The notes: generated by a model from the letters alone, not told the origin. A stretch of DNA of 64,000 nucleotides from Leucoraja ocellata (GCA_036785375.1 JAWMAR010000508.1:992001-1056000); one strand, 5' to 3'. Shown: positions 7,253-62,672, counted from the first letter of the stretch. Translations and numbers: made by a program.

Positions 7253-10200
7253 CGTTCAGCTATCCCCCTCTGATCTTAATTTTCCCCCGTAGGTTGTTCC
7301 TAGTGTATGAGTAAGAGTCATGGAAACAATGAAGTTGCAGAGACTTCATAAGGAAGTGGACAGAAGTAGGAACAGGAAACTTAATGCAAAAAATCACGAT
7401 GTCCTTTATACAGAAGGGAAAATGTTTCGAACAGTTCCCCAAAGCTGAGGGTGCAGAACAGTCCTTTTATTCATCAAGAAAGCAAAGTGCTGGAGGAACT
7501 CAGCGGATCTGCGGATGGAGTGGACTAGTGTTTACACAAACAACATTTCAGATTGAGTCCCTTCTTCAGACTGGGGGAATAGAGGGTAGAAAATTGGAAA
7601 TGCAAAGTCATAGTCATAGAGTGATACAGGGTGGAAACAGGCCCTTCGGCCCAACTTGCCCACACTGGCAAACATGTCCCAGCTACACTAGTCCCACCTA
7701 CCCACGTTTGGTCCATATCCCTCCAAACCTGTCCTACACATATACATAGAAACAAAGAAAACATAGAAATTAGGTGCAGGAGTACGCCATTCGGCCCTTC
7801 GAGCCTGCACCGCCATTCAATATGATCATGGCTGAGCATCCAACTCAATATTCTGTACCTGCCTTCTCTCCATACCCCCTGATCCCCTTAGCCACATGGG
7901 CCACATCTAACTCCCTCTTAAATATAGCCAATGAACTGGCCTCAACTACCCTCTGTGGCAGAGAGTTCCAGAGATTCACCACTCTCTGTGTGAAAAAAGT
8001 TCTTCTCATCTCGGTTTTAAAGGATTCCCCCCTTATCCTTAAGCTGTGACCCCTTGTCCTGGACTTCCCCAACATCGGGAGCAATCTTCCTGCATCTAGC
8101 CTGTCCAACCCCTTAAGAATTTTGTAATTTTCTATAAGATCCCCTCTCAATCTCCTAAATTCTAGAGAGTATAAAATATAGAAAATTGGAAGTGCAAAGT
8201 CATAGTCATAGAGTGATACAGGGTGGAAACAGGCCCTTCGGCACAACTTGCCCACACTGGCAAACATGTCCCAGCTACACTAGTCCCACCTACCCACGTT
8301 TGGTCCATATCCATCCAAACCTGTCCTACCCATATACATAGAAACATAGAAAACATAGAAATTAGGTGCAGGAGTAGGTCATTCGGCCCTTCGAGCCTGC
8401 ACCGCCATTCAATATGATCATGGCTGATCACTACCTCTATGGCAAGAATGTCCTTTCTCAGATTTGGAGACCAAAACTGTATGCAATACTCCAGGTGTGG
8501 TCTCTCCAAGACCCTGTACAACTGCAGTAGAACCTCCCTGCTCCTATACTAAAATCCTTTTGCTATGAATATCCCTGTTTGTGTATAACAGCCCTATCGA
8601 AATATATGCTCGCATTGAGTTTGCTCTCTATATTAGCATTATCACTATAACTTATGAAGTGGCAGAAACTCGAGAGGCCCAAAGACCTCTTGATATATGA
8701 GGAAAAAGACAGAAGTTGTGACAGGAAATCTAGTGCTAAAAATGAAAATGTTCTTTCACAGAATGATGGGAAATGTATCGCAGAGTTCCCCAAAGCTGAG
8801 GGTGCATAACACTCCCTTTAATGCTTTTAATGTCTTTTAATTGTTAAATCTCTCCCTGCACGGGAGACCCGACCTTTTCTTGTCGGGTCTCCGTTGTGGT
8901 TGGGGCTGCAACGAGGAGCGGCCTCCAACAGGGAGACCGGGAGCTCTGGTGCCGACGACTCACCGTCGCAGGGCTGGCCGAGTCCAGAGCGGGTGGAGCG
9001 GTGGTGGAGCGCTGCTGCTGCTGCGGCCCGACCTCCGGAGGCTGCAACTGTGGGTCTGCCATGATCATATTGAATGGCGGTGCAGGCTCGAAGGGCCGAA
9101 TGGCCTCTACTCCTGCACCTAATTTCTATGTTTCTATGATCACCCGTTCACACTGATTTCAGGAAGGTCAGAGGGGGCAGACATACCCCCCATCCATATA
9201 AACGGGACTGAGGTGGAGCGCGTCTCCAACTACAAATTCCTCGGGGTACACATCTTGTTGTGGCAGGATGGTTCAGTTGCCTGATAACAGCCGGGAAGAA
9301 ACTCTCCCTGAATCTGGAGGTGTGCGTTCGTTTTCACACTTCTGTACCTCTTGCCCGATGGGAGAGGGGAGAAGAGGGAGTGGCCGGGGGTGAGACTGGT
9401 CCTTGATTTTGCTGCTGGCCTTGCCGAGGCAGCGTGAGGTGTAGGTGGAGGCGATGGAAGGGAGGTTGGTTCGTGTGTGATGGTCTGAGCTGCATCTCAG
9501 AGACCGTGATCTATACAGCAAGCTCAAGCCCAGCTACAAATGAGCCTCTGCTCAGCCCTTCTCTGTCCACTCTGCCCACTTTCTCTGACATTTCTCTCTG
9601 CCCATCTCCCTCGTTCCTTACTCTCTATAATCAATCTCCCAGTAAGAATGTTCCTGATGTTGGGGAAGTCCAGAACAAGGAGCCACACAGTTTAAGGATA
9701 AGGGGGAAATCTTTTAGGACGGAGATGAGAAAAACATTTTTCACACACAGAGAGTGGTGAATCTGTGGAATACCCTGCCACAGAAGCTAGTTGAAGCCCG
9801 TTCATTGGCTATATTTAAGAGGGAGTTAGATGTGGCCCTTGTGGCTAAATGGATCAGGGGGTATGCAGAGAAAGCAGGTACAGGAATTCTGAGTTGGGTG
9901 ATCAGCCGTGATCATATTGAATGGTGAATGGTGCAGGCACGAAGGGCCCAATGGCCTACTCCTGCACCTATTGTCTATGTTTCTATGTCTATGGATGAGA
10001 TAGAAACATCAGGTCCAGGATACTTGGGCAATCTGCCCTGCCCCTCTCCCAAACACAGTGGTAGCGGTGGGGTGGGGAGGGGGTTATGATTGGAGAGGGC
10101 CCTGATTTTAGGCTGACGCAGTGTGTACCTCCCCTCTTTCTCGTTCTGGTGAGTAAATGGCAGTGAAGACATTCGGACAGTTTCCAGATCATCCCGCACC

Positions 10201-10313
10201 TCATTTGTTGCGACAACACGCTGCCCAGACGATTACAGGAACTACGCCTATGAAGATGACGGCAAGAACGATCAGGGCCACGATGCATATCCAGGACCTT
10301 TCCGAGCCACGTG
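10201..10313 (-). CDS. Siglec-like cassette A, transmembrane exon ending in a stop
   Basis: (S)RGSERSWICIVALIVLAVIFIGVVPVIVWAACCRNK*. The TGA at 10203-10201 is followed immediately by a donor-like g|gtgcgg. Confidence 0.82.
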
Positions 10314-10392
10314 CTGAGGGGTGGAGAAAGCAGTCAATGTAAGCCCAGCTCTGAGAAACAGACACGACAACATAACCTCAACTCCAGCCCAG

Positions 10393-11250
10393 ACCGGCGC
10401 GACTCTCGTCAGCAGCGGCCTCTGCAGCCCGTCTGCGTTTTTATTATTTTTTGTCTATGTTTCTATGTAGTTTTTGTTATTTTTTGTTGGGGTGTGTGTG
10501 TGTGGGGGGGTGGGGGTGGGGTGGGAGGGAGGGGGTAACTTTTTAATCTCTCCCTGCACGGGAGACCCGACCTTTTCTTTATCGGGTCTCCGTTGTCGTT
10601 GGGGCTGCAACGAGGAGCGGCCTCCAACAGGAGAAGACCGGGGGCTCTGGTGCCGACGACTCGCCTCACCGTCGCGGAGCTGGCCGAGTCCGGAGCGGGT
10701 GGAGCGGTGGTCGAGCGCTGCTGCTGCTGCGGCGCGACCTCCGGAGATTCGGAGCCTGCAACTGCGGGTCTGGCGGACGGCGGCACCGGGAGCCCGCGGG
10801 TCCCTGGAGGGAGATCGCTTTTCAGGCTCCCGCAACGGCGACTTCTCCCGCCCGAGTTGCGGGGTTGAAGAGCTCCTGGAGCGGGGCCTTACATCAAAGC
10901 CCCGTGCGGCTTGGAATGGCCACGGGACTCTGCGAGTGCACGCCGGGGGCTCTAACATCAAGACCCGGTGTGCGACCTTGCATCAACCGGCGTGGCTTTA
11001 ATGGCCGCGGGACAATCGCCATCGCCAGCCGGGGGCTTTGACTTTGACTGTGACATCGGGGGGGGGGGGGGGGGGGGAGTGCAGTGGAGAAATAAGTTTT
11101 TTTGGCATTCCATCACAGCAATGTGATGGATGTTTATGTAAATTATGTTGTGTCTTGGGTCTATTTGTTTGTAATGTATGGCTGCAGAAACGGCATTTCG
11201 TTTGGACCTCAAGGGGTCCAAATGACAAACAAATTGAATCTTGATCTTGA
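10393..11250 (+). mobile_element. GC-rich non-autonomous retroposon (copies at 24765-25410, 28460-29327, 53014-53660, 56715-57578; fragment at 8845-9057)
   Basis: CpG-rich body with no coding domain, and a 3' end aatgacaaacaaattgaatcttgatcttgat resembling Rex1/L2-type tails. It occurs at several sites. Confidence 0.7.
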
Positions 11251-11357
11251 TTAGCAATAAGGAGTTTTAAGGGCACAGACGGGTTATGAAACCACCAAAA
11301 TGGATAACCTCACATTTATGATGTTTTGAGGGGATATGACAGTCTGTGTCTACTCAC

Positions 11358-11639
11358 ATTCTACAGTGAGGGTCACATCCCTCTCTGCTGTCCCGTGTTT
11401 ATTCTCTGCCACACACTGATAGACCCCAGCATCCTGCCATGTCAGCTGAGGGAACTCCATCCACAGCTCGTTGTTGGAACGTGTTGTGTTCAGCGTGACA
11501 CCGAGATGTCTCCACGTCAGGTTAGATGCTGGGAAACTCTGGACGGAGCAGAGGATCGCTGCAGAGTTTCCTTCCTTTACACTGACCCAGGAACTGTTCA
11601 CGTAATCGGGGGAAGTGATTGAGAGATTCCGCGGGGCAT
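11358..11639 (-). CDS. Siglec-like cassette A, Ig domain 4 exon
   Basis: 282-nt phase1-1 exon, a close paralog of the domain 3 exon, with canonical splice sites. Confidence 0.9.
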
Positions 11640-11692
11640 CTACAAACAGATAAAATTCAGCAATCAGTTTTGTGGCACTTCCATGATTAACA

Positions 11693-12722
11693 ATGTTACA
11701 AAATTTTGAGATTTAAAAAATCAAGTCTGTAATTTATCCCATCAGATAAAGCATACAAAGATGTTTAATTTGACACCTAATTCACTTTCATATCTCAAGT
11801 ATTTAAAAAGTTATGGCCATTTTCATACTCGGAAATTAGCATCTTGTTCCCTATTGATTTTCTATGGACATAACAAAAAAGCTGTGATCGCGTGCTGTCA
11901 AAAGGCCATAACCTTCTTAAAAATTAAGAGAACTGAATGAAATTTTCAGTTATCGTAGATTGAAGCATTCTGAAACAAATATAAAATAATCTTACTTGGA
12001 TGACCTGAAATTAAAACATATAATTAGTTAGTTACCCAAGTGTAGCAAATTTCAAACTTCAATTACTAGATCTAAACATCTATCCATTTCTTAATAAATG
12101 ATTAACATTTTTAAATAGCCCAAGTGTCCAAATAATATTCATAAATAATTCACAATACAATATGATTTTGAAATCTCATTTACATTAATTTATAGGCCAA
12201 ATGGAAGGAATTTAGTGTTCAATTGCTGCAAATTAAAGTCCATTTAAATCAGCTTTCTAGTGGGTTCCTGTGGAACGCGCTGGTTTAGAACGTTCACATT
12301 GCGCTGGATTTGTGCCTCAAATGCCCAGAAAAACACTGCGGGATATAAAGAGCCCAAAATGACCTACTCGCTATAGAAAACTTTGTATAAAGGGTTCTTA
12401 AGAAGCCCCTTTTTAATGTAAAAATAAGGTACATACCTTTAATTGTTTGCTTTATAAAACCCTGGGGCTGCGAGAGGTCGCGGGTTTAGTGAGTGATTTT
12501 TAAACTACTATAACTATTATACAAGGCCATAAAAACTAATAATACCTTTTGCGACGGGGTATTTCAGCGATTTTTCGTTAATGATTTACTAGGCTGAACA
12601 TTTTCGATTGGAACAGCCTAGTAAAAATCCGCTTTTAAACCCGCCCCCTCTAAACAGCGCCAAACTCTCACACACGGGCTGGGGCAGATTCTCAATGACG
12701 CTTCAGTTAGGTTTTGTAACAT
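11693..12722. mobile_element. About 1.03-kb AT-rich non-autonomous DNA element with 11-bp inverted repeats (copies at 29769-30778 and 58020-59047)
   Basis: ATGTTACAAAA at 11693-11703 and TTTTGTAACAT at 12712-12722. No ORF and no clear TSD. Confidence 0.6.
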
Positions 12723-13270
12723 ACCTACACAATAGTCTATGTTTAGGGAAATGAGAGATAGACAATGGTGTAGAGAGATAAAGAACAATGATTGAATGAT
12801 GAGCAAAAAAAGTAACCATGATAAAGGAAACAGGCCATTGTTCGCTGTTTGTTGGATGAGAACGAGAAGCTGGTGCGACTTGGGCGGGGGAGAGATAGAG
12901 AGATGGTGGCCGACTAGGAAAGAGTGAGATGCAGCGAGACCTGGGTGTCATGGTACATCAGTCATTGAAGGTAGGCATGCAGGTGCAGCAGGCAGTGAAG
13001 AAAGCGAATGGTATGTTAGCTTTCATAGCAAAAGGATTTGAGTATAGGAGCAGGGAGGTTCTACTGCAGTTGTACAGGGTCTTGGTGAGACCACACCTGG
13101 AGTATTGCGTACAGTTTTGGTCTCCAAATCTGAGGAAGGACATTATTGCCATAGAGGGAGTGCAGAGAAGGTTCACCAGACTGATTCCTGGGATGTCAGG
13201 ACTGTCTTATGAAGAAAGACTGGATAGACTTGGTTTATACGCTCTAGAATTTAGGAGATTGAGAGGGGAT

Positions 13271-15080
13271 CTTATAGAAACTTACAAAATTCTTAAGGGG
13301 TTGGACAAGCTAGATGCAGGAAGATTGCTCCCGATGTTGGGGAAGTCCAGGACAAGGGGTCACAGCTTAAGGATAAGGGGGAAATCCTTTAAAACCGAGA
13401 TGAGAAGAACTTTTTTCACACAGAGAGTGGTGAATCTCTGGAACTCTCTGCCACAGAGGGTAGTCGAGGCCACAGTTCATTGGCTATATTTAAGAGGGAG
13501 TTAGATGTGGCCCTTGTGGCTAAGGGGATCAGGGGGAATGGAGAGAAGGCAGGTACGGGATACTGAGTTGGATGATCAGCCATGATCATATTGAATGGCG
13601 GTGCAGGCACGAAGGGCCAAATGGCCTACTCCTGCACCTAATTTCTATGTTTCTATGTTTCTATGAAACGTCACCCTATTTCTACTCTCCAGAGATGCTG
13701 CCTGTCCCGCTGAGTTACTCCAGCTTTTTTGTGACTCTCTTCAGTTTAAACCAGCACCTGCAGTTCCTTCCTACACATTGTGGCTGCTGCACTGCGAAAT
13801 CTCCTCAAGGCATGTCTACTTTGAAGAAAATCTCCTCTTTCTGACAAGAGAGAGTCGTAGGGTGATAGTGTGGAAACAGGCCCTTAGGCCTAACTTGCCC
13901 ACACCGGCCAACATGTCCCAGATACACTAGTGCCACCTGCCCACATTGGCCCATATCCTACCAAACTTGTCGTATCCATATACCTGTCTAACTGTTTCTT
14001 AAACGTTGGGATAACTCCCTGACTTAACTACCTCCTCTGGCAGCTCATTCCATACACCAACTTCCCTTTGTGTGAACAAGTCACCCCTCAGGTTCCTATT
14101 AAATATTTTCCCTTCACCTTGAACTTATGTCTTATAGAAACTTACAAAATTCTTAAGGAGTTGGACAGGCTAGATGCAGGAAGATTGTTCCCGATGTTGG
14201 GGAAGTCCAGGACAAGGGGTCACAAATTAAGGATAAGGGGGAAATCCTTTAAAACCGAGATGAGAAGAACTTTTTTCACACACAGAGTGGTGAATCTCTG
14301 GAACTCTCTGCCACAGAGGGTAGTCGAGGCCACAGTTCATTGGCTATATTTAAGAGGGAGTTAGATGTGGCCCTTGTGGCTAAGGGGATCAGGGGGTATG
14401 GAGAGAAGGCAGGTACGGGATACTGAGTTGGATGATCAGCCATGATCATATTGAATGGCGGTGCAGGCACGAAGGGCCAAATGGCCTACTCCTGCACCTA
14501 ATTTCTATGTTTCTATGTTTCTATGAAACGTCACCCTATTTCTACTCTCCAGAGATGCTGCCTGTCCCGCTGAGTTACTCCAGCTTTTGTGTGACTCTCT
14601 TCAGTTTAAACCAGCACCTGCAGTTCCTTCCTACACATTGTGGCTGCTGCACTGCGAAATCTCCTCAAGGCATGTCTACTTTGAAGAAAATCTCCTCTTT
14701 CTGACAAGAGAGAGTCGTAGGGTGATAGTGTGGAAACAGGCCCTTAGGCCTAACTTGCCCACACCGGCCAACATGTCCCAGATACACTAGTGCCACCTGC
14801 CCACATTGGCCCATATCCTACCAAACTTGTCGTATCCATATACCTGTCTAACTGTTTCTTAAACGTTGGGATATCTCCCTGACTTAACTACCTCCTCTGG
14901 CAGCTCATTCCATACAACAACTTCCCTTTGTGTGAACAAGTCACCCCTCAGGTTCATATTAAATATTTTCCCTTCACCTTGAACTTATGTCTTATAGAAA
15001 CTTACAAAATTCTTAAGGAGTTGGACAGGCTAGATGCAGGAAGATTGTTCCCGATGTTGGGGAAGTCCAGGACAAGGGGT
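13271..15080 (+). repeat. 860-bp tandem duplication (CR1 3' end + SINE + CR1 pieces), about 2.1 copies
   Basis: ORFs at 13572/14432 and 14068/14928 recur at an exact 860-bp period. Also present in C (about 59.6-61.4 kb) and absent in B. Confidence 0.85.
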
Positions 15081-15775: not shown

Positions 15776-16057
15776 ATTCTACAGTGAGGGTCCCATTCCT
15801 CTCTGCTGTCCCGTGTTCATTCTCTGCCACACACTGATAGACCCCAGCGTCCTGCCATGTCAGCTGAGAGAACTCCATCCACAGTTCGTTGTTGGAACGT
15901 GTTGTGTTCAGCGTGGCACCGAGATGTCTCCACGTCAGGTTAGATGTTGGGAAACTGTGGACAGAGCAGAGGATCGCTGGAGAGTTTCCTTCATTTATAC
16001 TGACCCAGGAACTGTTCACGTCATCGGGGGAAGTGATTGATAGATTCTGGGGGGCGT
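15776..16057 (-). CDS. Siglec-like cassette A, Ig domain 3 exon
   Basis: 282-nt phase1-1 exon with the B-strand Cys, C-strand Trp and DAGVYQC motif, and canonical splice sites. Confidence 0.9.
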
Positions 16058-18112: not shown

Positions 18113-18406
18113 ATTGAACAGCCATTGTGAGGATCTGCTCGGATGAGACTGCTGGGTATGCGACTCTGCAGGTGAGGTTTTGCCCGTGATGTTTGAGTGC
18201 TGGGGTCAGGTACAGAACAGAAGTATATGTCAGAGTGTCTCCCTGCTGAGTTACGCTGCGTGAGGCTAACGGCGGTTCATCAGCGGGGGTGACCCAGGTT
18301 AAGGTGGGGGCTGTTCCATCACACGTGGTGTAGAAGGAGCAGGTCATGTTCACAGGCCGACCTGCCACCATTTCAGCAGGGAATATCGTGGGTTTATCTG
18401 TGAAAT
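18113..18406 (-). CDS. Siglec-like cassette A, domain 2 (C2-set) exon
   Basis: 294-nt phase1-1 exon, (D)FTDKPTIFPAEMVAGRPVNMTCSFYTTCDGTAPTLTW...SVLYLTPALKHHGQNLTCRVAYP...VQ. The extra Cys after the B-strand Cys is typical of Siglec domain 2. Confidence 0.92.
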
Positions 18407-21346: not shown

Positions 21347-21712
21347 CAATAACACGGAGCTGTGTTGGAGGGTGGTAGTTGTAACGATTTCCATCTCCAA
21401 AATCAACTCTGAAAAAATAAGGACCTGTATCTTGCTGCCTGACGTTGTCTATAACCAGGGAACAGTCCTTGTCTCTCAGGAATCCTGACAGCCGGGTCCG
21501 ATGCTGAAACTGTGTTGATATTACACTGGGATACCTGGAGTGGAAGGCTACAGACCGATGGTTCTGTGTCTCACTGTTATACCAGATTCCAGTCCGTGGT
21601 TTTTTATTTAGATACGACGGGTGCCTGTACTGACACGGAATCCGTGCACACAGGCCATTCTGCGCTGTCACATGTGGTGGATCCCACGGTCTCCACTGTC
21701 CCGACACCACGG
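21347..21712 (-). CDS. Siglec-like cassette A, V-set sialic acid-binding domain exon
   Basis: 366-nt phase1-1 exon. It has an N-terminal Trp, a B-strand C-x4-C (GLCARIPC), an E-strand Cys (DCSL), the F-strand YFFR arginine in place of the usual Ig F-strand Cys, and G-strand aromatics (RYNY). Confidence 0.93.
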
Positions 21713-21849: not shown

Positions 21850-22670
21850 CCTCACTCCTCACCCCCCCCCCCCCTCACACAGTCCGTCACTCCCTCTTCA
21901 CCCCCCCCCCCTCACACAGTGTGTCACTTCCACCTCCCCCCCCACAGTGTGTGTCACTCCCTACAACAGTGCATCACTCCCTCCCACAGTATGTCACTCC
22001 TCACCACCCCCCCACAGTGCATCACTACCTCCCACAGTGCATCACTCCCTCCTCACTGCCCCCCCACAGTTCGTCACTCCCTCATCACTGCCCCTCCCAC
22101 AGTGTGTGTGTCACTCCCTACAACAGTGCATCACTCCCTCACACAGTGTGTCACTCCTCACTGCCCCCCCCCCACAGTGCGTCACGCGGCCCTCACCACC
22201 CCTCCCACAGTGCATCACTCCCTCCTCACCCCCCCCCCCCATAGTGTGTGTAACTCCATCCTCACCCCCTCCCACAGTGCGTCGCTCCCTCTTCACCGTC
22301 CCCCCCCCCACAGTGCGTTACTCCCTCTTCACTGCGCCTCCCACACTGCATCACTCCCTCCCACAGCGCATCACTCCCTCCCACACTGATCTCTCCTCCC
22401 ACAGTGCATCACTCCCTCCTCACCGCCCCTCCCACACTGCATCACTCCTCCCACAGTGCGTCACTCCCTCTCACAGTGCATCACTCCCTCCCACACTGCA
22501 TCACTCCTCTCACAATGCATCGCTCCCTCCTCACCCCCCCCCCCCCCCACAGTGCATCACTCCCTCCCACAGTGTCTCACTCCCTCATCACCGCCCCTCC
22601 CACAGTGCGTTACTCCCTCCCACAGTGCATCACTCCCTCCTCACCGCACCTTCCACAGTGCGTCACTCCC
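21850..22670. repeat. C-rich minisatellite (cacagtgcatcactccctcc-like units) in the intron 5' of the V exon
   Basis: Degenerate tandem array. A shorter version is at 37845-38465. Confidence 0.9.
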
Positions 22671-22915
22671 AGGGACAAGTAGAGTTTCCCTTGTGGCCAG
22701 GGCCCGGAGCGCAAGGAGCACCGCCACTCCACCTCGGGCCCATAGGGGGAGGAGTGACTCTGCTGTCAGCGACCGAAGGACTGGTGATGGGATCTAGGGA
22801 GTTGGCAGGGCCGAAGATGGCCTGGCTGGGTTGCTCCTGGGCCTGGCCAAGCTGGCCATCCGCGAGTCACGGTGCCAGGCGGAAGAGGGCTTTGCCTGAA
22901 CAGTTGCTTGCATCT
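22670..22915 (+). mobile_element. Tx1-like ORF2 C-terminal remnant (paralog at 38465-38712)
   Basis: EDGLAGLLLGLAKLAIRESRCQAEEG, homologous to the 4107-4582 element. Confidence 0.65.
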
Positions 22916-24389
22916 TTGCGGTGACCGATTAGGAAAAGAGGAGATGCAGCGAGACCTGGGTGTCATGGTACAACAGTCCTTGAAAGTAGGCATGCAGGTG
23001 CAGCAGGCAGTGAAGAAAGCGAATGGTATGTTAGCATTCATAGCAAAAGGATTTGAGTCTAGGAGCAGGGAGGTTCTACTGCAGTTGTACAGGGTCTTGG
23101 TCCCTTCTTCAGACTGGGGGAATAGAGGGTAGAAAATTGGAAATGCAAAGTCATAGTCATAGAGTGATACAGGGTGGAAACGGGCCCTTCGGCCCAACTT
23201 GCCCACACTGGCAAACATGTCCCAGCTACGCTAGTCCCACCTACCCAAGTTTGGTTCATATCCCTCCAAACCTGTCCTACCCATATACATAGAAACATAG
23301 AAAACATAGAAATTAGGTGCAGGAGTAGGCCATTCGGCCCTTCGAGCCTGCACCGTCATTCAATATGATCATGGCTGATCATCCATCTCAGTATCCTGTA
23401 CCTGCCTTCTCTCCATACCCCCTGATCCCCTTAGTCACAAGGGCCACATCTAACTCCCTCTTAAATATAGCCAATGAACTGGCCTCAACTACCCCTTGTG
23501 GCAGAGAGTTCCAGAGATTCACCACTCTCTGTGTGAAAAAAGTTCTTCTCATCTCGGTTTTAAAGGATTTCCCCCTTATCCTTAAGCTGTGACCCCTTGT
23601 CCTGGACTTCCCCAACATCGGGAGCAATCTTACTGCATCTAGCCTGTCCAACCCCTTAAGAATTTTGTAAGTTTCTATAAGATTCCCTCTCAGTCTCCTA
23701 AATTCTAGAGAGCATAAACCAAGTCTATCCAGTCTTTCTTCATAAGACAGTCCTGACATCCCAGGAATCAGTCTGGTGAACCTTCTCTGCACTCCCTCTA
23801 TGGCAAGAATGTCCTTCCTCAGATTTGGAGACCAAAACTGCAATACTCCAGGTGTGGTCTCACCAAGACCCTGTACAACTGCAGTAGTACCTCCCTGCTC
23901 CTATACTCAAATCATTTTGCTATGAATATCCCTGTCTGTGTATAACAGCCCTATCGAAATATATGCTCGCATTGAGTTTGCTCTCTATATTAGCATTATC
24001 ACTATAACTTATGAAGTGGCAGAAACTCGAGAGGCCCAACGACCTCTTGATATATGAGGAAATAGACAGAAGTTGTGACAGGAAATCTAGTGCTAAAAAT
24101 GAAAATGTTCTTTCACAGAATGATGGGAAATGTATCGCAGAGTTCCCCAAAGCTGAGGGTGCATAACACTCCCTTTAATGCTTTTAATGTATTTTAATTT
24201 TTAATTTAATGTAATTTAATTTAATTTAATAACACTCCCTTTAATGCTTTTAATGTCTTTTTAATTTTTACTGTTTTTATAGTCTTATGTGGTCTTAATG
24301 GTTTTAGTAGTTTGTAATAACTTTTTGTTGACTTCCCATGTACAGCACTTTGTGGTAACTGATGTTGTCTAAAAGCGCTTTATAAATAA

Positions 24390-27400: not shown

Positions 27401-28263
27401 CGGATCCAACCCCTTCCCACATGTCACAATAAACTAAAAAGTAACTAAACTCTACTCCATCCCAGCGTCGGGATGTCAGGGCTTTCATATGAAGAAAGAT
27501 TGGATAGACTCGGCTTGTACTCGCTAGAATTTAGAAGATTGAGGGGGGATCTTATAGAAACGTACGACATTCTTAAGGGGTTGGACAGGCTAGATGCAGC
27601 AAGATTGTTCCTGATGTTGGGGAAGTCCAGAACAAGGGGCCACACAGTTTAAGGATAAGGGGGAAATCTTTTAGGACAGAGATGAGAAAAGCATTTTTCA
27701 CACACAGAGAGTGGTGAATCTGTGGAATTCTCTGCCACAGAAGGTAGTTGAGGCCACAGTTCATTGGCTATATTTAAGAGGGAGTTAGATGTGGCCCTTG
27801 TGGCTAAGGGGATCAGGGGGTATGGAGAGAAGTCAGGTACAGGATACTGAGTTGGATGATCAGCCATGATCATATTGAATGGCGGTGCAGGCTCGAAAGG
27901 CCGAATGGCCTCTACTCCTGCACCTAAATTGAATGTTTCTATGTTTCTATGAAAGGTTCAGAGAGATATGGGCCAAATGGGACTTATTTAGATGGGACAC
28001 TTGGACGAGTTGGGCCGAATGGCACCTATTGTCTATGTTTCTATGTCTATGGATGAGATAGAAACATCAGGTCCAGGATACTTGGGCAATCTGCCCTGCC
28101 CCTCTCCCAGACACAGTGGTAGCGGTGGGGAGGGGGGGGGGGGGGGTTATGATTGGAGAGGGCCCTGATTTTAGGCTGACGCAGTGTCTACCTCCCCTCT
28201 TTCTCGTTCTGGTGAGTAAATGGCAGTGAAGACATTCGGACAGTTTCCAGATCATCCCGCACC

Positions 28264-28376
28264 TCATTTGTAGCTACAACACGCTGGCCAGACGATTACA
28301 GGGACTACGCCTATGAAGATGACGGCAAGAACGATCAGGGCCACGATGCATTTCCAGGACCTTTCCGAGCCACGTA
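28264..28376 (-). CDS. Siglec-like cassette B, transmembrane exon ending in a stop
   Basis: Acceptor ctccacccctcag| then (L)RGSERSWKCIVALIVLAVIFIGVVPVIVWPACCSYK*. Confidence 0.8.
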
Positions 28377-34104: not shown

Positions 34105-34399
34105 ATTGAACAGCCATTGTGAGGATCTGCTCGGATGAGACTGTTGGGTATAGCGACTCTGCAGGTGAGGTTTTGCCCGTGATGTTTGAGTGCTGGGGTC
34201 AGGTACAGAACAGAAGTATATGTCAGAGTGTCTCCCTGCTGAGTTACGCTGCGTGAGGCTAACAGCGGTTCATCAGCGGGGGTGACCCAGGTTAAGGTGG
34301 GGGCTGTTCCATCACACGTGGTGTAGAAGGAGCAGGTCATGTTCACAGGCCGACCTGCCACCATTTCAGCAGGGAATATCGTGGGTTTATCTGTGAAAT
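34105..34399 (-). pseudogene. Siglec-like cassette B, domain 2 (C2-set) exon with a 1-nt insertion frameshift
   Basis: 295 nt versus 294 nt in cassette A. An extra base near 34152 (gggtatagcg vs gggtatgcg) shifts the frame after TCRVA. It lies in an indel-rich stretch, so it may be an assembly error. Confidence 0.8.
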
Positions 34400-37339: not shown

Positions 37340-37705
37340 CAATAACACGGAGCTGTGTTGGAGGGTGGTAGTTGTAACGATTTCCATCTCCAAAATCAAC
37401 TCTGAAAAAATAAGGACCTGTATCTTGCTGCCTGACGTTGTCTATAACCAGGGAACAGTCCTTGTCTCTCAGGAATCCTGACAGCCGGGTCCGATGCTGA
37501 AACTGTGTTGATATTACACTGGGATACCTGGAGTGGAAGGCTACAGACCGATGGTTCTGTGTCTCACTGTTATACCAGATTCCAGTCCGTGGTTTTTTAT
37601 TTAGATACGACGGGTGCCTGTACTGACACGGAATCCGTGCACACAGGCCATTCTGCGCTGTCACATGTGGTGGATCCCACGGTCTCCACTGTCCCGACAC
37701 CACGG
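37340..37705 (-). CDS. Siglec-like cassette B, V-set sialic acid-binding domain exon
   Basis: 366-nt phase1-1 exon (ctcctcag| ... |gtaagt) encoding GLCARIPC, RTRLSGFLRDKDCSL, DTGPYFFRVD, NRYNY. Protein is identical to cassette A. Confidence 0.92.
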
Positions 37706-39468
37706 CTGAGGAGAGAAGGAACAATCTTTAGCAGTGAACACCCTGTCAGTTCACTGGACTCACTCTCCACACATTTTATCCTGCGCTGTGGGCCTGGTGT
37801 GTACAGAGCGGGGAAGAGTGGCGTGGTGGTGTAGTGGTAGAGCCTCACTCCTCACCCCCCCCCCCCCCCTCACACAGTCCGTCACTCCCTCTTCACCCCC
37901 CCCCCCTCACACAGTGTGTCACTTCCACCTCCCCCCCACAGTGTGTGTCACTCCCTACAACAGTGCATCACTCCCTCCCACAGTATGTCACTCCTCAACA
38001 CCCCCCCACAGTGCATCACTCCATCCTCACCCCCTCCCACAGTGCGTCGCTCCCTCTTCACCGTCCCCTCCCCCACAGTGCGTTACTCCCTCTTCACTGC
38101 GCCTCCCACACTGCATCACTCCCTCCCACAGCGCATCACTCCCTCCCACACTGATCTCTCCTCCCACAGTGCATCACTCCCTCCTCACCGCCCCTCCCAC
38201 ACTGCATCACTCCTCTCACAGTGTCTCACTCCCTCCTCACCCCCCCTCCCACAGTGCGTCACTCCCTCTCACAGTGCATCACTCCCTCCCACACTGCATC
38301 ACTCCTCTCACAATGCATCGCTCCCTCCTCACCCCCCCCCTCCCACAGTGCATCACTCCCTCCCACAGTGTCTCACTCCCTCCTCACCGCCCCTCCCACA
38401 GTGCGTTACTCCCTCCCACAGTGCATCACTCCCTCCTCACCGCACCTTCCACAGTGCGTCACTCCCAGGGACCAGTAGAGTTTCCCTTGTGGCCAGGGCC
38501 CGGAGCGCAAGGAGCACCGCCACTCCACCTCGGGCCCATAGGGGGAGGAGTGACTCTGCTGTCAGCGACCGAAGGACTGGTGATGGGATCTAGGGAGTTG
38601 GCAGGGCCGAAGATGGCCTGGCTGGGTTGCTCCTGGGCCTGGCCAAGCTGGCCATCCGCGAGTCACGGTGCCAGGCGGAAGAGGGCTTTGCCTGAACAGT
38701 TGCTTGCATCTTTGCGGTGACCGATTAGGAAAAGAGGAGATGCAGCGAGACCTGGGTGTCATGGTACAACAGTCCTTGAAAGTAGGCATGCAGGTGCAGC
38801 AGGCAGTGAAGAAAGCGAATGGTATGTTAGCATTCATAGCAAAAGGATTTGAGTCTAGGAGCAGGGAGGTTCTACTGCAGTTGTACAGGGTCTTGGTGAG
38901 ACCACACCTGGAGTATAGCGTACAGTTTTGGCCTCCTAATCTGAGGAAAGACATTCTTGCCATAGAGGGAGTGCAGAGAAGGTTCATCAGACTGATTCCT
39001 GGGATGTCAGGACTTTCATATGAAGAAAGACTGGATAGACTGGGCTTTAGAATTTAGAAGATTGAGGGGGGATCTAATAGGAACTTACAAAATTCTTAAG
39101 GGGTTGGACAGGCTAGATGCAGGAAGATTGTTCCCGATGTTGCGGAAGTCCAGGACAGGAGGGTCACAGTTTAAGAATAAAGGATAAATCTTTAAGGATA
39201 TGGGATGATGTTCCTCCAATTTGCATTTAGCCCCACTCTGACAGTAGAGGAGACCTAGGACAGAAAGGTCATTGTGAGAATGGGACGGGTGATTAAAGTG
39301 TTTGGCAACCGGGAGATCAGGTAGGTCCAGGCAGACTGAGCGAAGGTGTTCAGCGAAATGATCATAGCAGCCCCAGAACCGACCCCTGCGGAACTCCGCT
39401 AGTCACTGGCAGCCAACCACTAAAAGCCTCCTTGCCCGTAAACACTTCCGAGTTGCTGCTGGTGGTAC

Positions 39469-39508
39469 CTTGGAGAAGGGAGAGGAGGAAGAACGATCGC
39501 CCGATCAT
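39469..39508 (-). CDS. Siglec-like gene, signal peptide (leader) exon, coding part
   Basis: Minus strand reads tactttctcttccag|atcggg...ATG ATC GGG CGA TCG TTC TTC CTC CTC TCC CTT CTC CAA G|gtacca = MIGRSFFLLSLLQ plus a phase-1 G. Splicing to the V exon gives MIGRSFFLLSLLQAVVSG-QW, a typical signal peptide. The full exon including 5'UTR is 39469-39542. Confidence 0.85.
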
Positions 39509-39993: not shown

Positions 39994-41503
39994 ATTCAAA
40001 CTTTCAAGGTCAGTTTATTGTCTCATGTACCATTTAAGGTACTGTGAAGTTCGAATAACCAACAAAAAGCAACAAGAGACACAACTACATAAAAGTCACC
40101 ATAAACACCCACCACAGCGGACTCCCCACGATCCTCACCGGGACCGAAGGCAATAAAGTCCAAACCGCTTCTTCCTCTTTTATTCTCCCATGGTCGGGGC
40201 AATCGAACTATCCGCAGTCGGGAGGATTGGAGCTCCCGCAGCCGGCAGTGGAAGACCCCGTGTCGGGGCGATCGAAGACCTCGCGTCGAGGCGGTGGAAG
40301 ACCCCGCGTCCGGGCGATCGAAGACCCCGCGTCGGGGCGGTGGAAGACCCTGCGTCGGGGCGATCGAAGACCCCTCGTCGGGGCGGTGGAAGACCCCGCG
40401 TTGGGGCGACCGAAGACCCCGCGTCGGGGCGGTGGAAGACCCCGCATCGGGGCGATGGAAGACCCCGCATTGGGGCGGTGGAAGACCCCGCGTTGGGGCG
40501 ATCGAAGACCCCGCATCGGGGCGGTGGAAGACCCCACGTCGGGGCGGTGGAAGACCCCACGTCGGGGCGGTGGAAGACCCCGCGTCGGGGCGGTGGAAGA
40601 CCCCACGTCGGGGCGGTGGAAGACCCCACGTCGGGGCGATCGAAGACCCCAAGTCGGGGCGGTGGAAGACCCCGTGTCGGGGCGGTGGAGGACCCCGCGT
40701 CGGGGCGATCGAATACCCCACGTCGGGGCGATGGAAGACCCCGCGTCGGGGCGATGGAAGACCCCGTGTCGGGGCGGTGGAAGACCCCGCGTCGGGGCGA
40801 CCGAAGACCCCAAGTCGGGGCGGTGGAAGACCCCGCGTCGGGGCGATGGAAGACCCCGCGTCGGGGCGATGGAAGACCCCGCGTCGGGGCGGTGGAAGAC
40901 CCCGTGTCGGGGCGGTGGAAGACCCCGTGTCGGGGCGGTGGAAGACCCCGTGTCGGGGCGGTGGAAGACCCCGTGTCGGGGCGGTGGAAGACCCCGTGTC
41001 GGGCCGGTGGAAGACCCCGTGTCAGGGCGGTGGAAGACCCCGTGTCGGAGCGGTGGAAGACCCTGTGTCGGGGCGATCGAAGCTCCTGCGGTTTGGAGTT
41101 TCCCGAAGTCGGTCTCTAACCAGCGAGCACAAGCTCCACAATGTTAAAGTCCACAGGCACCCATGGGTGGATCCCCAAACTTGACCCCGACAGGGATCGT
41201 AAGCTCCGTGATGGTAAGTCCTGCAGACACCCGGGGTACAGCTCTCCAAGTCGGTCTCATGCAAATGCCACCAACTCCTCGATGTTAGACCGCAGTGCGG
41301 ACGGAAATGTGATACGGAAGAAAATCGCATCTCCGTTGAGGTAAGTGATTATAAAAAGTTTCCCACAACTCCCGCCCACTCCATACATAAAACAAGCTAA
41401 AGAACACTAAAAACATACATTTAACACACACAAACAGACAACAAAACAGGAAGGGACAGACAGAGTGTTGGCGAGGCAGCCATTGCTAGCACCGCCTGGT
41501 GGT
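39994..41503 (-). mobile_element. GC-rich non-autonomous retroposon with an internal minisatellite, inserted in a CR1
   Basis: The CR1 is split between 39993 and 41504. The minus-strand tail has gacaataaac...ttgaa, and the head is ggcggtgctagcaatggctgcctcgcc. Confidence 0.65.
40244..41082. repeat. 23-bp GC-rich minisatellite (gtcggggcggtggaagaccccgc), about 36 copies
   Basis: Direct tandem units with no spacers. It explains the long Pro/Arg/Gly ORFs in all frames. Confidence 0.92.
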
Positions 41504-56443: not shown

Positions 56444-56631
56444 CTACCTCCCCTCTTTCTCGTTCTGGTGAGTAAATGGCAGTGAAGACATTCGGACAGT
56501 TTCCAGATCATCCCGCACCTCATTTGTAGCTACACACGCTGGCCAGACGATTACAGGGACTACGCCTATGAAGATGACGGCAAGAACGATCAGGGCCACG
56601 ATGCATTTCCAGGACCTTTCCGAGCCACGTA
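56444..56631 (-). pseudogene. Siglec-like paralog C, transmembrane exon with a 1-nt deletion
   Basis: Same TM as B, but tgttgtagc becomes tgtgtagc. This bypasses the TGA and gives ...WPACVATNEVRDDLETVRMSSLPFTHQNEKEGR*. Confidence 0.7.
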
Positions 56632-57684: not shown

Positions 57685-57966
57685 ATTCTACAGTGAGGGT
57701 CACATTCCTCTCTGCTGTCCCGTGTTTATTCTCTGCCACACAATGTTAGACCCCAGCATCTTGCCATGTCAGCTGAGGGAACTCCATCCACAGCTCGTTG
57801 TTGGAACGTGTTGTGTTCAGCGTGACACCGAGATGTCTCCACGTCAGGTTAGATGCTGGGAAACTCTGGACGGAGCAGAGGATCGCTGTAGAGTTTCCTT
57901 CCTTTACACTGACCCAGGAACTGTTCACGTCATCGGGGGAAGTGATTGAGAGATTCCGCGGGGCAT
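57685..57966 (-). pseudogene. Siglec-like paralog C, Ig domain 4 exon with a nonsense codon
   Basis: GGG GTC TAT CAG TGT (GVYQC) in A and B is GGG GTC TAA CAT TGT here. The stop is at 57748-57746. Confidence 0.85.
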
Positions 57967-60900
57967 CTACAAACAGATAAAATTCAGCAATCAGTTTTGT
58001 GGCACTTCCATGATTAACAATGTTACAAAATTTTGAGATTTATAAAATCAAGTCTGTAATTTATCCCATCAGATAAAGCATACAAAGATGTTTAATTTGA
58101 CACCTAATTCACTTTCATATCTCAAGTATTTAAACAGTTATGACCATTTTCATACTCGGAAATTAGCATCTTGTTCCCTATTGATTTTCTATGGACATAA
58201 CAAAAAAGCTGTGATCGCGTGCTGTCAAAAGGCCATAACCTTCTTAAAAATTAAGAGAACTGAATGAATTTTTCAGTTATCGTAGATTGAAGCATTCTGA
58301 AACAAATATAAAATAATCTTACTTGGATGACCTGAAATTAAAACATATAATTAGTTAGTTACCCAAGTGTAGCAAATTTCAAACTTCAATTACTAGATCT
58401 AAACATCTATCCATTTCTTAATAAATGATTAACATTTTTAAATAGCCCAAGTGTCCAAATAATATTCATAAATAATTCACAATAAAATATGATTTTGAAA
58501 TCTCATTTACATTAATTTATAGGCCAAATGGAAGGAATTTAGTGTTCAATTGCTGCAAATTAAAGTCCATTTAAATCAGCTTTCTAGTGGGTTCCTGTGG
58601 AACGCGCTGGTTTAGAACGTTCACATTGCGCTGGATTTGTGCCTCAAATGCCCAGAAAAACACTGCGGGATATAAAGAGCCCAAAATGACCTACTCGCTA
58701 TAGAAAACTTTGTATAAAGGGTATTTAAGAAGCCCCTTTTTAATGTAAAAATAAGGTACATACCTTTAATTGTTTGCTTTATAAAACCCTGGGGCTGCGA
58801 GAGGTCGCGGGTTTAGAGAGTGATTTTTAAACTACTATAACTATTATACAAGGCCATAAAAACTAATAATACCTTTTGCGACGGGGTATTTCAGCGATTT
58901 TCGTTAATGATTTACTAGGCTGAATATTTTCGATTGGAACAGCCTAGTAGAAATCCGCTTTTAAACCCGCCCCCTCTAAACAGCGCCAAAATCACACACA
59001 CGGGCTGGGGCAGATTCTCAATGACGCTTCAGTTAGTTTTGTAACATACCTACACAATAGTCTATGTTTAGGGAAATGAGAGATAGACAATGGTGTAGAG
59101 AGATAAAGAACAATGAATGAATGATGTGCAAAAAAAGTAACCATGATAAAGGAAACAGGCCATTGTTCGCTGTTTGTTGGATGAGAACGAGAAGCTGGTG
59201 CGACTTGGGCGGGGGAGAGATTGAGAGATGGTGGCCGACTAGGAAAGAGTGAGATGCAGCGAGAACTGGGTGTCATGGTACACCAGTCATTGAAGGTAGG
59301 CATGCAGGTGCAGCAGGCAGTGAAGAAAGCGAATGGTATGTTAGCTTTCATAGCAAAAGGATTTGAGTATAGGAGCAGGGAGGTTCTACTGCAGTTGTAC
59401 AGGGTCTTGGTGAGACCACACCTGGAGTATTGCGTACAGTTTTGGTCTCCAAATCTGAGGAAGGACATTATTGCCATAGAGGGAGTGCAGAGAAGGTTCA
59501 CCAGACTGATTCCTGGGATGTCAGGACTGTCTTATGAAGAAAGACTGGATAGACTTGGTTTATACGCTCTAGAATTTAGGAGATTGAGAGGGGATCTTAT
59601 AGAAACTTACACAATTCTTAAGGGGTTGGACAGGCTAGATGCAGGAAGATTGCTCCCGATGTTGGGGAAGTCCAGGACAAGGGGTCACAGCTTAAGGATA
59701 AGGGGGAATCCTTTAAAACCGAGATGAGAAGAACTTTTTTCACACAGAGAGTGGTGAATCTCTGGAACTCTCTGCCACAGAGGGTAGTCGAGGCCACAGT
59801 TCATTGGCTATATTTAAGAGGGAGTTAGATGTGGCCCTTGTGGCTAAGGGGATCAGGGGGTATGGAGAGAAGGCAGGTACGGGATACTGAGTTGGATGAT
59901 CAGCCATGATCATATTGAATGGCGGTGCAGGCACGAAGGGCCAACTGGCCTACTCCTGCACCTAATTTCTATTTTCTATGTTTCTATGAAACGTCACCCT
60001 ATTTCTACTCTCCAGAGATGCTGCCTGTCCCGCTGAGTTACTCCAGCTTTTTTGTGACTCTCTTCAGTTTAAACCAGCACCTGCAGTTCCTTCCTTCACA
60101 TTGTGGCTGCTGCACTGCGAAATCTCCTCAAGGCATGTCTACTTTGAAGAAAATCTCCTCTTTCTGACAAGAGAGAGTCGTAGGGTGATAGTGTGGAAAC
60201 AGGCCCTTAGGCCTAACTTGCCCACGCCGGCCAACATGTCCCAGATACACTAGTGCCACCTGCCCACATTGGCCCATATCCTACCAAACTTGTCGTATCC
60301 ATATACCTGTCTAACTGTTTCTTAAACGTTGGGATAACTCCCTGACTTAACTACCTCCTCTGGCAGCTCATTCCATACACCAACTTCCCTTTGTGTGAAC
60401 AAGTCACCCCTCAGGTTCCTATTAAATATTTTCCCTTCACCTTGAACTTATGTCTTATAGAAACTTACAAAATTCTTAAGGAGTTGGACAGGCTAGATGC
60501 AGGAAGATTGTTCCCGATGTTGGGGAAGGTCCAGGACAAGGGGTCACAACTTAAGGATAAGGGGGAAATCCTTTAAAACCGAGATGAGAAGAACTTTTTC
60601 ACACAGAGAGTGGTGAATCTCTGGAACTCTCTGCCACAGAGGGTAGTCGAGGCCACAGTTCATTGGCTATATTTAAGAGGGAGTTAGATGTGGCCCTTGT
60701 GGCTAAGGGGATCAGGGGGTATGGAGAGAAGGCAGGTACGGGATACTGAGTTGGATGATCAGCCATGATCATATTGAATGGCGGTGCAGGCACGAAGGGC
60801 CAAATGGCCTACTCCTGCACCTAATTTCTATGTTTCTATGTTTCTATGAAACGTCACCCTATTTCTACTCTCCAGAGATGCTGCCTGTCCCGCTGAGTTA

Positions 60901-61520
60901 CTCCAGCTTTTGTGTGACTCTCTTCAGTTTAAACCAGCACCTGCAGTTCCTTCCTACACATTGTGGCTGCTGCACTGCGAAATCTCCTCAAGGCATGTCT
61001 ACTTTGAAGAAAATCTCCTCTTTCTGACAAGAGAGAGTCGTAGGGTGATAGTGTGGAAACAGGCCCTTAGGCCTAACTTGCCCACACCGGCCAACATGTC
61101 CCAGATACACTAGTGCCACCTGCCCACATTGGCCCATATCCTACCAAACTTGTCGTATCCATATACCTGTCTAACTGTTTCTTAAACGTTGGGATAACTC
61201 CCTGACTTAACTACCTCCTCTGGCAGCTCATTCCATACACCAACTTCCCTTTGTGTGAACAAGTCACCCCTCAGGTTCATATTAAATATTTTCCCTTCAC
61301 CTTGAACTTATGTCTTATAGAAACTTACAAAATTCTTAAGGAGTTGGACAGGCTAGATGCAGGAAGATTGTTCCCGATGTTGGGGAAGTCCAGGACAAGG
61401 GGTGAAGAAAGCGAATGGTATGTTAGCTTTCATAGCAAAAGGATTTCAGTATAGGAGCAGGGAGGCTCTACTGCAGTTGTACAGGGTCTTGGTGAGACCA
61501 CACCTGGAGTATTGCGTACA

Positions 61521-62672
61521 ATTAGATAGATAGATCCTTTATTGTCATTCAGACCTTACGGTCTGAACGAAACTATGTTGCCTGCAGTCATACACAGAAT
61601 CAATAATAACAAAACATACAATAAACACCAATTAAACATCCACCACAGTGAGTTCACCAAGCACATCCTCACTGTGATGGAGGCAAAGTCTTAGTTTCCA
61701 TCTCTTCCCTCCTTGTTCTCCCTCTGCGCTGAGGCGATCGATCCAGGCCGGAGATGCCGCTCTCCAGTCCAGCGGACCTCCGTGGTGATGTCGCCGCTGC
61801 CGATAGCCGGAACGCCATCCCCGCTCCGAGACGGCCCGCCACAGCATCAGCTCCGGGCCGCCGCCCCAGCTCCAGGTCGATGCCCCAGCTCCAGATCCGG
61901 CAGTCTCCGCACCGGGCCGCTGCCCCAGCTCCAGGTCGATGCCCCAGCTCCAGGTCGCCGCCCCAGCTCCAGATCCTGCAGTCTCCGCACCGGGCCGCTG
62001 CCCCAGCTCCAGGTCGATGCCCCAGCTCCAGGTCGCTGCCCCAGCTCCAGATCCGGCAGTCTCCGCACCGGGCCGCTGCCCCAGCTCCAGGTCGATGCCC
62101 CAGCTCCAGGTCGCCGCCCCCAGCTCCAGATCCTGCAGTCTCCGCACCGGGCCGCTGCCCCAGCTCCAGGTCGATGCCCCAGCTCCAGGTCGCTGCCCCA
62201 GCTCCAGGCCGCCGCGCCAGCTTCTGGTCCCGCAGTCGCTGCTCCAGGTCCCGCCGTCTCCGCTCTGGGCCGCTGCCCCAGCTCCAGATCCTGCAGTCTC
62301 CGCTCTGGGCCGCTGCCCCAGCTCCGGGCCGCTGCCCCAGCTCCGGGCCCCGCTGCATCAGCCCCAGGCCGCCGCCGAAAGTCAGAACGCCGCACCAGCA
62401 AGTCGGGCCACCGCTGCTCAGCCCCGAAGACGGCCAGCCTCTCGTTGGTAAGTCCTGGCTGGCTCTGCCTCCGGAGCCTCGGGGTCGGTCACAGGCTGGA
62501 GGCCGCCAGCTCCGCCATTAGGCCTCAGCGCAGACGGAGGCAGAGAAGGGGGATACGACATGAAAAAGTCGCATTCCCCCGAAGGAAGAGACAGAGAACA
62601 TGTTCCACCCCCTCTAACACAACCCAACAAACTAAAACTTAACCAAAACAAGACAAAAAAAACAACAGAAAA
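61521..62672 (-). mobile_element. GC-rich non-autonomous retroposon, specific to paralog C, inserted in a CR1
   Basis: Splits gcgtaca|ttttggtgtccaaat, which is contiguous in A at about 15198. The minus-strand 3' end is aatgacaataaaggatctatctatcta. It contains a minisatellite at 61835-62370. Confidence 0.75.

Follow-up and report, generated by a model that had tools for sequence, protein, structure and literature searches.

The question raised by this locus is what becomes of a Siglec-type receptor whose transmembrane (TM) exon carries a stop codon one base before its splice donor, that is, which cytoplasmic tail has been lost, when it was lost, and what a receptor with just three cytosolic residues might still do. 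The window analyzed here is a stretch of 64,000 nucleotides from the skate Leucoraja ocellata (GCA_036785375.1 JAWMAR010000508.1:992001-1056000), in which such a gene occurs in three copies, A, B, and C, on the minus strand. A preliminary description had taken them for tail-less Siglec genes that may have lost an inhibitory (ITIM/ITSM) tail through an Arg-to-stop mutation. In what follows, retrieved proteins carry P numbers, sequencing runs carry X numbers, and papers are cited by PMC number for the part of their text that was available.

The exons upstream of the TM exon encode a V-set and three C2-type domains (Pfam V-set, Ig_CD22, and C2-set_2) of a type I transmembrane protein, and the V domain finds its best PDB matches in MAG (E 4e-16), sialoadhesin, Siglec-5, and CD33. 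The arginine of the F strand, which lies in YFFRV and aligns with YYFRG of MAG and YNFRF of sialoadhesin, is present in all seven tail-less rows of the alignment. The RefSeq names of the relatives are automatic and mixed, and the family is called Siglec-type here from its V domain and architecture. Two features of known Siglecs are absent: there is no cytoplasmic ITIM or ITSM of the inhibitory kind, the homologous tail exon being of the ITAM type, and neither Lys nor Arg occurs within the TM segment of A, B, or the other tail-less proteins, so that neither the coupling to DAP12 nor the adaptor pairing in general that had been suggested for these receptors finds support.

In copy A the protein encoded by the TM exon ends in WAACCRNK, with an uncharged hydrophobic stretch of 25 residues followed by RNK and the stop, and both borders of the exon coincide with joints of an RNA-type contig (X1 record 4, discussed below). 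The placement of the TGA one base before a donor-like site in A and B, as previously described, is confirmed at 10203-10198 and in the exon at 28376-28263 (Table 1). For C the description was half right, in that the same TGAGGTGCGG is present at 56522; the loss of 1 nt a few codons before it, which went unmentioned, shifts the frame. On a rough donor-scoring matrix, the GT at 10199 is the sole positive scorer among 15 GT sites in 10150-10313 (3.1 bits, against 4.7-5.1 bits for the four Ig-exon donors of copy A on the same matrix); an alternative donor upstream of the stop was rejected, the other 14 sites all scoring below zero. The stop site is unchanged in record 12 of DNA run X10, where three differences over 256 nt all lie upstream and TGA-G-GT is kept. 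The TM exon of B and C (28263-28275) and the old last exon (9532-9544) have in common, at their ends, a 13-nt stretch that closes with TGAG. This match, at which A and the other skates differ, may reflect chance or conversion.

Table 1. Features of the window, with positions counted from its first nucleotide
Feature	Position	Strand	Remarks
Two opposed LINE reverse-transcriptase fragments	9152-9255; 9256-9495	plus; minus	Very high depth in all runs
Old terminal tail exon	9487..9621	plus	ITAM second half; coding 9487-9543, followed by 3′ UTR; orientation opposite to that of copy A
Start of the intron, homologous to the one following the ITAM-type Rhinoraja TM exon (P0042)	10150..10199	minus	12/18 identical
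Splice donor GTGCGG, copy A	10194..10199	minus	1 base past the stop
TGA, copy A	10201..10203	minus	Where ITAM-tailed paralogs have the last Arg codon of this exon; TGA 10203-10201, G 10200, GT 10199-10198
TM exon, copy A	10200..10313	minus	114 nt; phase 1 at both ends; acceptor ...CCCCTCAG
Last Ig C2-type exon, copy A	11358..11639	minus	Spliced to TM exon
Ig C2-type exon, copy A	15776..16057	minus	Pfam and exon map
First C2-set exon, copy A	18113..18406	minus	Intact
Siglec-type V-set exon, copy A	21347..21712	minus	F-strand Arg (YFFRV) conserved; no own leader exon upstream
TM exon, copy B	28263..28376	minus	Same stop and donor; end WPACCSYK-TGA-G/GTGCGG
First C2-set exon, copy B	34105..34399	minus	1-nt insertion; lesion or assembly error
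V-set exon, copy B	37340..37705	minus	Identical to that of A (0/366 differences)
Leader exon, sole one in window	39470..39508	minus	Upstream of B
TM exon, copy C	56519..56631	minus	1-nt deletion; TGA out of frame
Last Ig exon, copy C	57685..57966	minus	In-frame TAA

The relatives of this gene show that truncation is one of several outcomes in the family. A search with the V exon gave 84 candidates from skates, rays, sawfish, and sharks, 58 of them longer proteins, together with two Logan proteins, and cluster look-ups and later searches brought the total set to 82. A TM segment is present in 52 of the 82: 10 of these continue into a canonical ITAM (D/E-xx-YxxL-x(6-8)-YxxL), eight carry no more than 10 residues beyond the membrane, and the long tails of the remaining 34 are of other kinds, most having two Tyr motifs and being ITIM-like by a rough pattern (23/71), and three belonging to ITAM-type models whose tails are partial or mis-spliced. 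The ITAM tails belong to nine Rhinoraja proteins (P0026, P0031, P0035, P0062, P0063, P0065, P0066, P0068, and P0072) and one from the sawfish Pristis (P0058), and they are reached through an Arg and read YQEL, seven residues, then YSDL or YSEL. Tail-less ends are found in P0004 (Leucoraja), P0025 (Amblyraja, Rajidae), P0023 (Rhinoraja, Arhynchobatidae), and P0011, P0059, and P0060 (Logan contigs of 1378-1550 nt), and the TM exon of the window is common to six of the eight short-tailed proteins. No charged residue occurs in the best TM window of any of the 18 ITAM and short-tailed proteins. The nearest named protein is P0004, a complete model with a 91% identical V domain and the same tail-less end, and paired forms exist, since ITIM-tailed P0061 and ITAM-tailed P0026 of Rhinoraja are 94% identical over 312 ectodomain residues. 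The idea that the whole family is tail-less therefore falls, given its ITIM-like and ITAM members, and so does a constant palmitoylatable Cys pair: a membrane-adjacent Cys is kept in all tail-less proteins, and P0023 and P0025 have a single one.

Several further observations concern the variety of these proteins. Where the ITAM type has cysteines in its extracellular stalk (CGC/CGQ), all tail-less proteins read RGS/RGW, a change that may remove a disulfide dimer. Two stingray proteins, P0017 (Hemitrygon, XP_072918331.1) and P0080 (Hypanus, XP_059813423.1), end in ...YIQK where ITIM-type paralogs go on KR/D; they stop at the equivalent Arg of an ITIM-type TM exon, probably as a parallel event seen in RefSeq models. 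P0070 and P0071 (XP_078287855.1) of Rhinoraja join two ITAM tail exons to unrelated upstream sequence and are probably orphan tail exons, and P0002 and P0081 (Mobula) show yet another kind of TM segment and tail, with three Tyr motifs, in a Siglec-like protein that has several V domains.

That the stop replaces an arginine, as had been surmised for the Arg codon closing a phase-1 TM exon, is borne out by the tailed paralogs, which read RCRGKR/E at the site where the tail-less ones end in RNK or RSK, as well as by use of the donor in a paralog contig. In a read-through model from Rhinoraja, P0042, 12 of 18 residues equal those translated from the window beyond the TGA, and an Arg stands opposite the stop (score 61, whereas 20,000 stretches drawn at random from the window reached 21 at most), from which it follows that the TGA replaces this Arg and that the intron is homologous. 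Comparison of TM exons among relatives, which the preliminary description had proposed, thus gave the sense Arg it anticipated, followed by a two-exon tail in Rhinoraja and Pristis at the protein level, the tailed paralogs being known as protein sequences and the stops in other skates from RefSeq models rather than codons. Its expectation that the stop predates expansion of the cluster was also right, the tail-less end being common to Rajidae and Arhynchobatidae (Leucoraja, Amblyraja, and Rhinoraja). A CGA-to-TGA change is the likeliest route, judging from CpG mutability. In a V-domain tree of 67 rows, restricted to cartilaginous-fish sequences, with five of 71 proteins left out as short or without a V match and the V domain of the window added, all seven tail-less rows fall into one clade with two TM-less Amblyraja models (97/77; the SH-aLRT of 77 is not starred), and P0023, P0025, and P0011 group at 100/99. 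The direction of change, to judge by these sequences, is from ITAM to tail-less, because the outgroup sawfish has the ITAM and because the donor and the last exon persist. P0004 and P0011 form a mosaic (V 71%, first C2 99%, last C2 73%, and TM 95% identity), so the lineage of the window may have obtained its tail-less exon by conversion instead of descent.

As to what was lost, an ITIM or ITSM tail, as first supposed, does not fit, since paralogs with the same TM type splice to a two-exon ITAM tail in Rhinoraja and Pristis; on the evidence of these paralogs, the lost tail is an ITAM. Pfam recognizes the ITAM in P0058 (E 0.0023) and P0031 (E 0.011), both under the curated cut-off, and in the PDB the ITAM tail comes closest to CD3 epsilon (E 0.0018) and to 7q5w, an ITAM peptide of DAP12 (13/19 identical, E 0.057-0.17). 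The exon border falls within the first YxxL, in that P0067 ends in YQ, P0024 has an insertion at this point, and the exon in the window starts with EL, with which P0070 agrees. Classical ITAM subunits have an exon border inside the first YxxL (PMC4536121), and the ITAM of ITAM-bearing CEACAMs is likewise split within its first YxxL (PMC2110893 and PMC2832619). A DAP12 origin of the tail drew no hit among three candidates in a search with the P0058 tail, and the P0031 tail gave hits in two of 14, both Rhinoraja orphan tail-exon models. A phmmer search with P0070 against 1.84 billion representatives returned three hits, all from Rhinoraja and none of them TYROBP; a PDB search with the P0058 tail gave a single unrelated hit, and two Atlas searches gave leads under 0.9 only, with no TYROBP among them. 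All these PDB matches of the ITAM tail are weak (E 0.002-0.2), with the score of CD3 epsilon equal to or above that of DAP12. A resemblance of the TM and tail module as a whole to DAP12 would be no more than a lead, which the searches just listed did not bear out. The gene of the window has no translated ITAM: its stop precedes the donor, and its last exon is inverted and, in the spliced form, out of frame.

Part of the old tail is still to be found in the window. On the plus strand, 9487-9543 reaches a profile score of 50.6 across all six frames, against 20.0 for the next best (z 8.5), and 12 of its 18 residues equal those of P0024, with the stop in place and the YxxL still open. The claim that the minus strand holds no ITIM- or ITSM-encoding exon stands, and neither tblastn nor a motif search found ITIM-type tail exons in the window; the ITAM tail exon on the plus strand had been overlooked. 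This exon lacks an AG acceptor and occurs once in the window, no last tail exon having been found in the window behind B or C, and none at all between the TM exon of B and the start of A. One LINE fragment (9256-9495) covers about the first 10 nt of the inverted exon, and because of this overlap of its first bases with the LINE the sequence suggests that the exon was flipped by an inversion at a short inverted match, the inversion being seen in the assembly alone, with no piece from DNA run X10 listed across the LINE-exon junction. DNA depth in X10 is 237-268 over the old last exon (9491-9621) and 71-123 over the tail-less TM exon, a 2-4 fold difference that hints at extra copies in the organism of X10. 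The middle tail exon, 65 nt by protein length, was not found: the best score of a profile scan of the window was 20.6, which is background level, and a back-translated pattern allowing up to three mismatches gave 15 matches, none with fewer than three, of which 12 are near-identical copies of one repeated sequence.

How the donor is used can be read from four of the 24 runs listed, which were compared over 9139-11750, the RNA status of X1 and X3 being a guess. In record 4 of X1, a 1004-nt contig of depth 6.8, the last Ig exon is followed by the TM exon as far as the donor and then by 9488-9621 of the opposite strand; the joints are the predicted exon borders, and the 65-nt middle exon is absent. 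X1 and X3 have zero depth across the intron at 10019-10194, and record 20 of X3 begins at 9487. Differing from the window at three positions of the TM exon and 42 of the Ig exon, the X1 contig fits a P0011-type paralog of another organism and not the gene of the window, so that use of the donor is shown in the lineage and not in copy A. A raw RNA run, X17, of which 5% was read, had no reads on the TM exon and is too shallow to inform. The distance from the stop to the last junction is 1 nt without the middle exon and 66 nt with it, and the limit for escape from nonsense-mediated decay (NMD) is 50-55 nt (PMC5716581); the spliced form without the middle exon would thus escape NMD, and loss of the 65-nt exon may have rescued the mRNA. 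Selenocysteine insertion or stop read-through was considered and rejected, since in the spliced form it would add just a few residues without restoring an ITAM.

The state of the copies bears on how much weight they can carry. A, B, and C lie in duplicated blocks that are 96.8-98.4% identical over 3.7-8.7 kb, with 14-49 gap openings per block, and they therefore count as one observation rather than as independent evidence. Contrary to the preliminary description, they are not three complete genes, since the 64 kb hold one leader and one last exon. The five exons of A are intact, with good splice sites, and its duplicated block stops short of the leader exon of B, leaving A without a leader; barring errors or splicing from the leader of B to A, none of the copies in the window amounts to an undamaged gene from end to end. 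Together, B and A resemble either a single gene in which a segment has been tandemly duplicated or a false duplication, and the breakpoint (window 22900-23300) lies within LINE sequence. A tandem duplication of about 860-950 nt occurs in an intron of A (13270-15080) and C (59595-61403) and is unmatched in B. Minisatellite-like tandem arrays and low-complexity repeats with long open frames are present at 40023-41184, 21850-22670, 37845-38466, and 61632-62642, the array at 40-41 kb having a unit of about 23 nt. The deletion in C would restore the frame of the old last exon, with a single YxxL; C itself has the upstream TAA and no last exon behind it.

Taken together, the retained binding arginine, the lack of a Tyr motif, and the lack of a charged TM residue lead us to propose, as the reading that is on balance probable, that the gene encodes a membrane-anchored, non-signaling decoy derived from an activating Siglec-like receptor. 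Its origin would lie in a family whose forms are ITIM-like, ITAM-bearing, or tail-less, the TM exon of the tail-less form being of the ITAM type. The Arg that has given way to a stop in proteins of three skate genera from two families would have been lost by a single CGA-to-TGA transition before those families split. The donor would then have joined the old last ITAM exon, now 3′ UTR, with the middle exon skipped, as in the one paralog contig, and the position of the stop 1 nt (not 66 nt) from the last junction would spare the mRNA from NMD. The tail-less protein would bind sialylated ligands or pathogens in competition with its ITIM and ITAM relatives, and would do so without signaling; no ITAM-tailed member was found among the fetched proteins of Rajidae, and the competing partner may consequently be of the ITIM type only. 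Finally, the last exon, now non-coding, which is inverted downstream of A and missing after B and C, would be in the course of being lost, and these three copies may either have their 3′ end elsewhere or be in decay.

The possibility of decay leads to the most serious rival, namely that the three copies are pseudogenes or haplotype duplicates that received their tail-less exon as a copy from a single functional gene of the tail-less kind. We consider this unlikely, though it accounts for a good deal: three TM exons are served by one leader and one inverted, acceptor-less last exon, B has a frameshift, C has a stop and a frameshift, each block has 14-49 gap openings, and the X10 contigs covering 10289, 10313, and 10341 all show the letter of B and C at these positions. 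Against it stand the five intact exons of A and the complete model P0004, with its 91% identical V domain and the same end, and decay would concern the copies of the window, leaving a conserved tail-less lineage. The lesions accordingly lower confidence that these copies work, though not that the lineage works. A tail-less receptor might also signal or be internalized through a partner or lipid rafts, as proposed for Siglec-1, by way of its juxtamembrane Cys, which is kept in all tail-less proteins seen; with an uncharged TM segment, just three cytosolic residues, and an unconserved double Cys, this appears distinctly improbable.

Two other routes would give the truncated exon a different product, and both seem to us very improbable. 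The stop could have turned the TM exon into a GPI-anchor signal, for which the hydrophobic C-terminus speaks and for which there is precedent, TM-exon stops having repeatedly yielded GPI signals in CEACAMs (PMC2832619). By inspection, however, the skate stop follows basic R-x-K stop-transfer residues that are kept in three genera, and the likeliest attachment residue is Leu in every tail-less protein except A; moreover, the GPI exons of CEACAMs arose from ITIM-type TM exons, with stops within the hydrophobic stretch. Marginally fainter still is the prospect that a minor tailed isoform persists, either by read-through with the middle exon or from a C-like frameshifted allele restoring the last exon as a single YxxL. 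The last exon is indeed open, with its YxxL and stop, in the frame that the deletion of C would set, but no middle exon was found in the window, read-through of the spliced form adds few residues and no Tyr motif, and C has its upstream stop and lacks a last exon behind it.

If the decoy reading is extended to batoids at large, a three-way Siglec-like system may be envisaged, made up of inhibitory receptors, self-sufficient activating receptors with their own adaptor-type ITAM (possibly a captured DAP12 module minus the charged TM residue), and decoys, in which the last Arg codon of the TM exon would act as a recurrent one-base off-switch, once in the skate ITAM class and again in the stingray ITIM class, and loss of the middle exon would let the truncated mRNA escape NMD. 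We offer this larger scheme tentatively, as one with somewhat less than an even chance of holding. Skates and rays do possess a Siglec-like family that is expanded and paired and in which an ITAM is built in, as it is in CEACAM3, and the tail-less branch would record how an activating receptor can become a decoy through two small changes still legible in DNA and RNA. No principle is overturned, truncated members of paired-receptor families being already known. Neither Siglecs with a built-in ITAM nor the skate and ray family itself were found in the literature searched, in which coverage of subscription journals is partial, and the available part of PMC4079198 holds nothing on a skate or ray Siglec-like family; in fish, only four conserved Siglecs without a CD33-related expansion have been described (available text of PMC7226832).

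Among known systems, the Siglec family (MAG/Siglec-4, sialoadhesin/Siglec-1, and the CD33-related members) shares with the skate gene a V-set domain with conserved Arg, C2-type domains, a TM segment, and an expanded cluster with paired forms. Activating mammalian Siglecs pair with DAP12 through a positively charged TM residue (PMC6288428 and PMC13358205; the latter once says loosely that they "contain ITAMs" and then states the adaptor route), whereas the activating form of skates and sawfish has the ITAM in its own tail and the tail-less form has neither. Siglec-1 resembles the skate gene in having no ITIM or ITAM and an uncharged TM segment; the skate gene differs from it in its four Ig domains, its three-residue tail, and its secondary derivation from an ITAM receptor. 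DAP12/TYROBP and CD3 epsilon provide the best PDB matches to the ancestral skate tail and have the same exon split, and the skate TM segment differs in lacking an acidic residue. In the CEACAMs, among which CEACAM1-S was also compared, the ITAM is split by a phase-0 intron and tail exons have been exchanged as a block (PMC2110893); CEACAM3 has its own ITAM, like the tailed skate and sawfish paralogs, and human CEACAM21 and dog CEACAM29, like the skate gene, combine an ITAM-class TM exon with a premature stop or a lost donor, according to the available text of the same paper. The stop of CEACAM21 lies at the end of the second cytoplasmic exon, whereas the skate gene has its stop already in the TM exon and lacks the middle exon in the mRNA seen, and the ectodomains of CEACAM21, CEACAM29, and CEACAM3 are of the CEACAM type whereas that of the skate gene is of the Siglec type. 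CEACAM21 and CEACAM29 beside the ITAM-bearing CEACAM3 are the closest precedent for the tail-less skate receptor beside its ITAM-tailed relatives.
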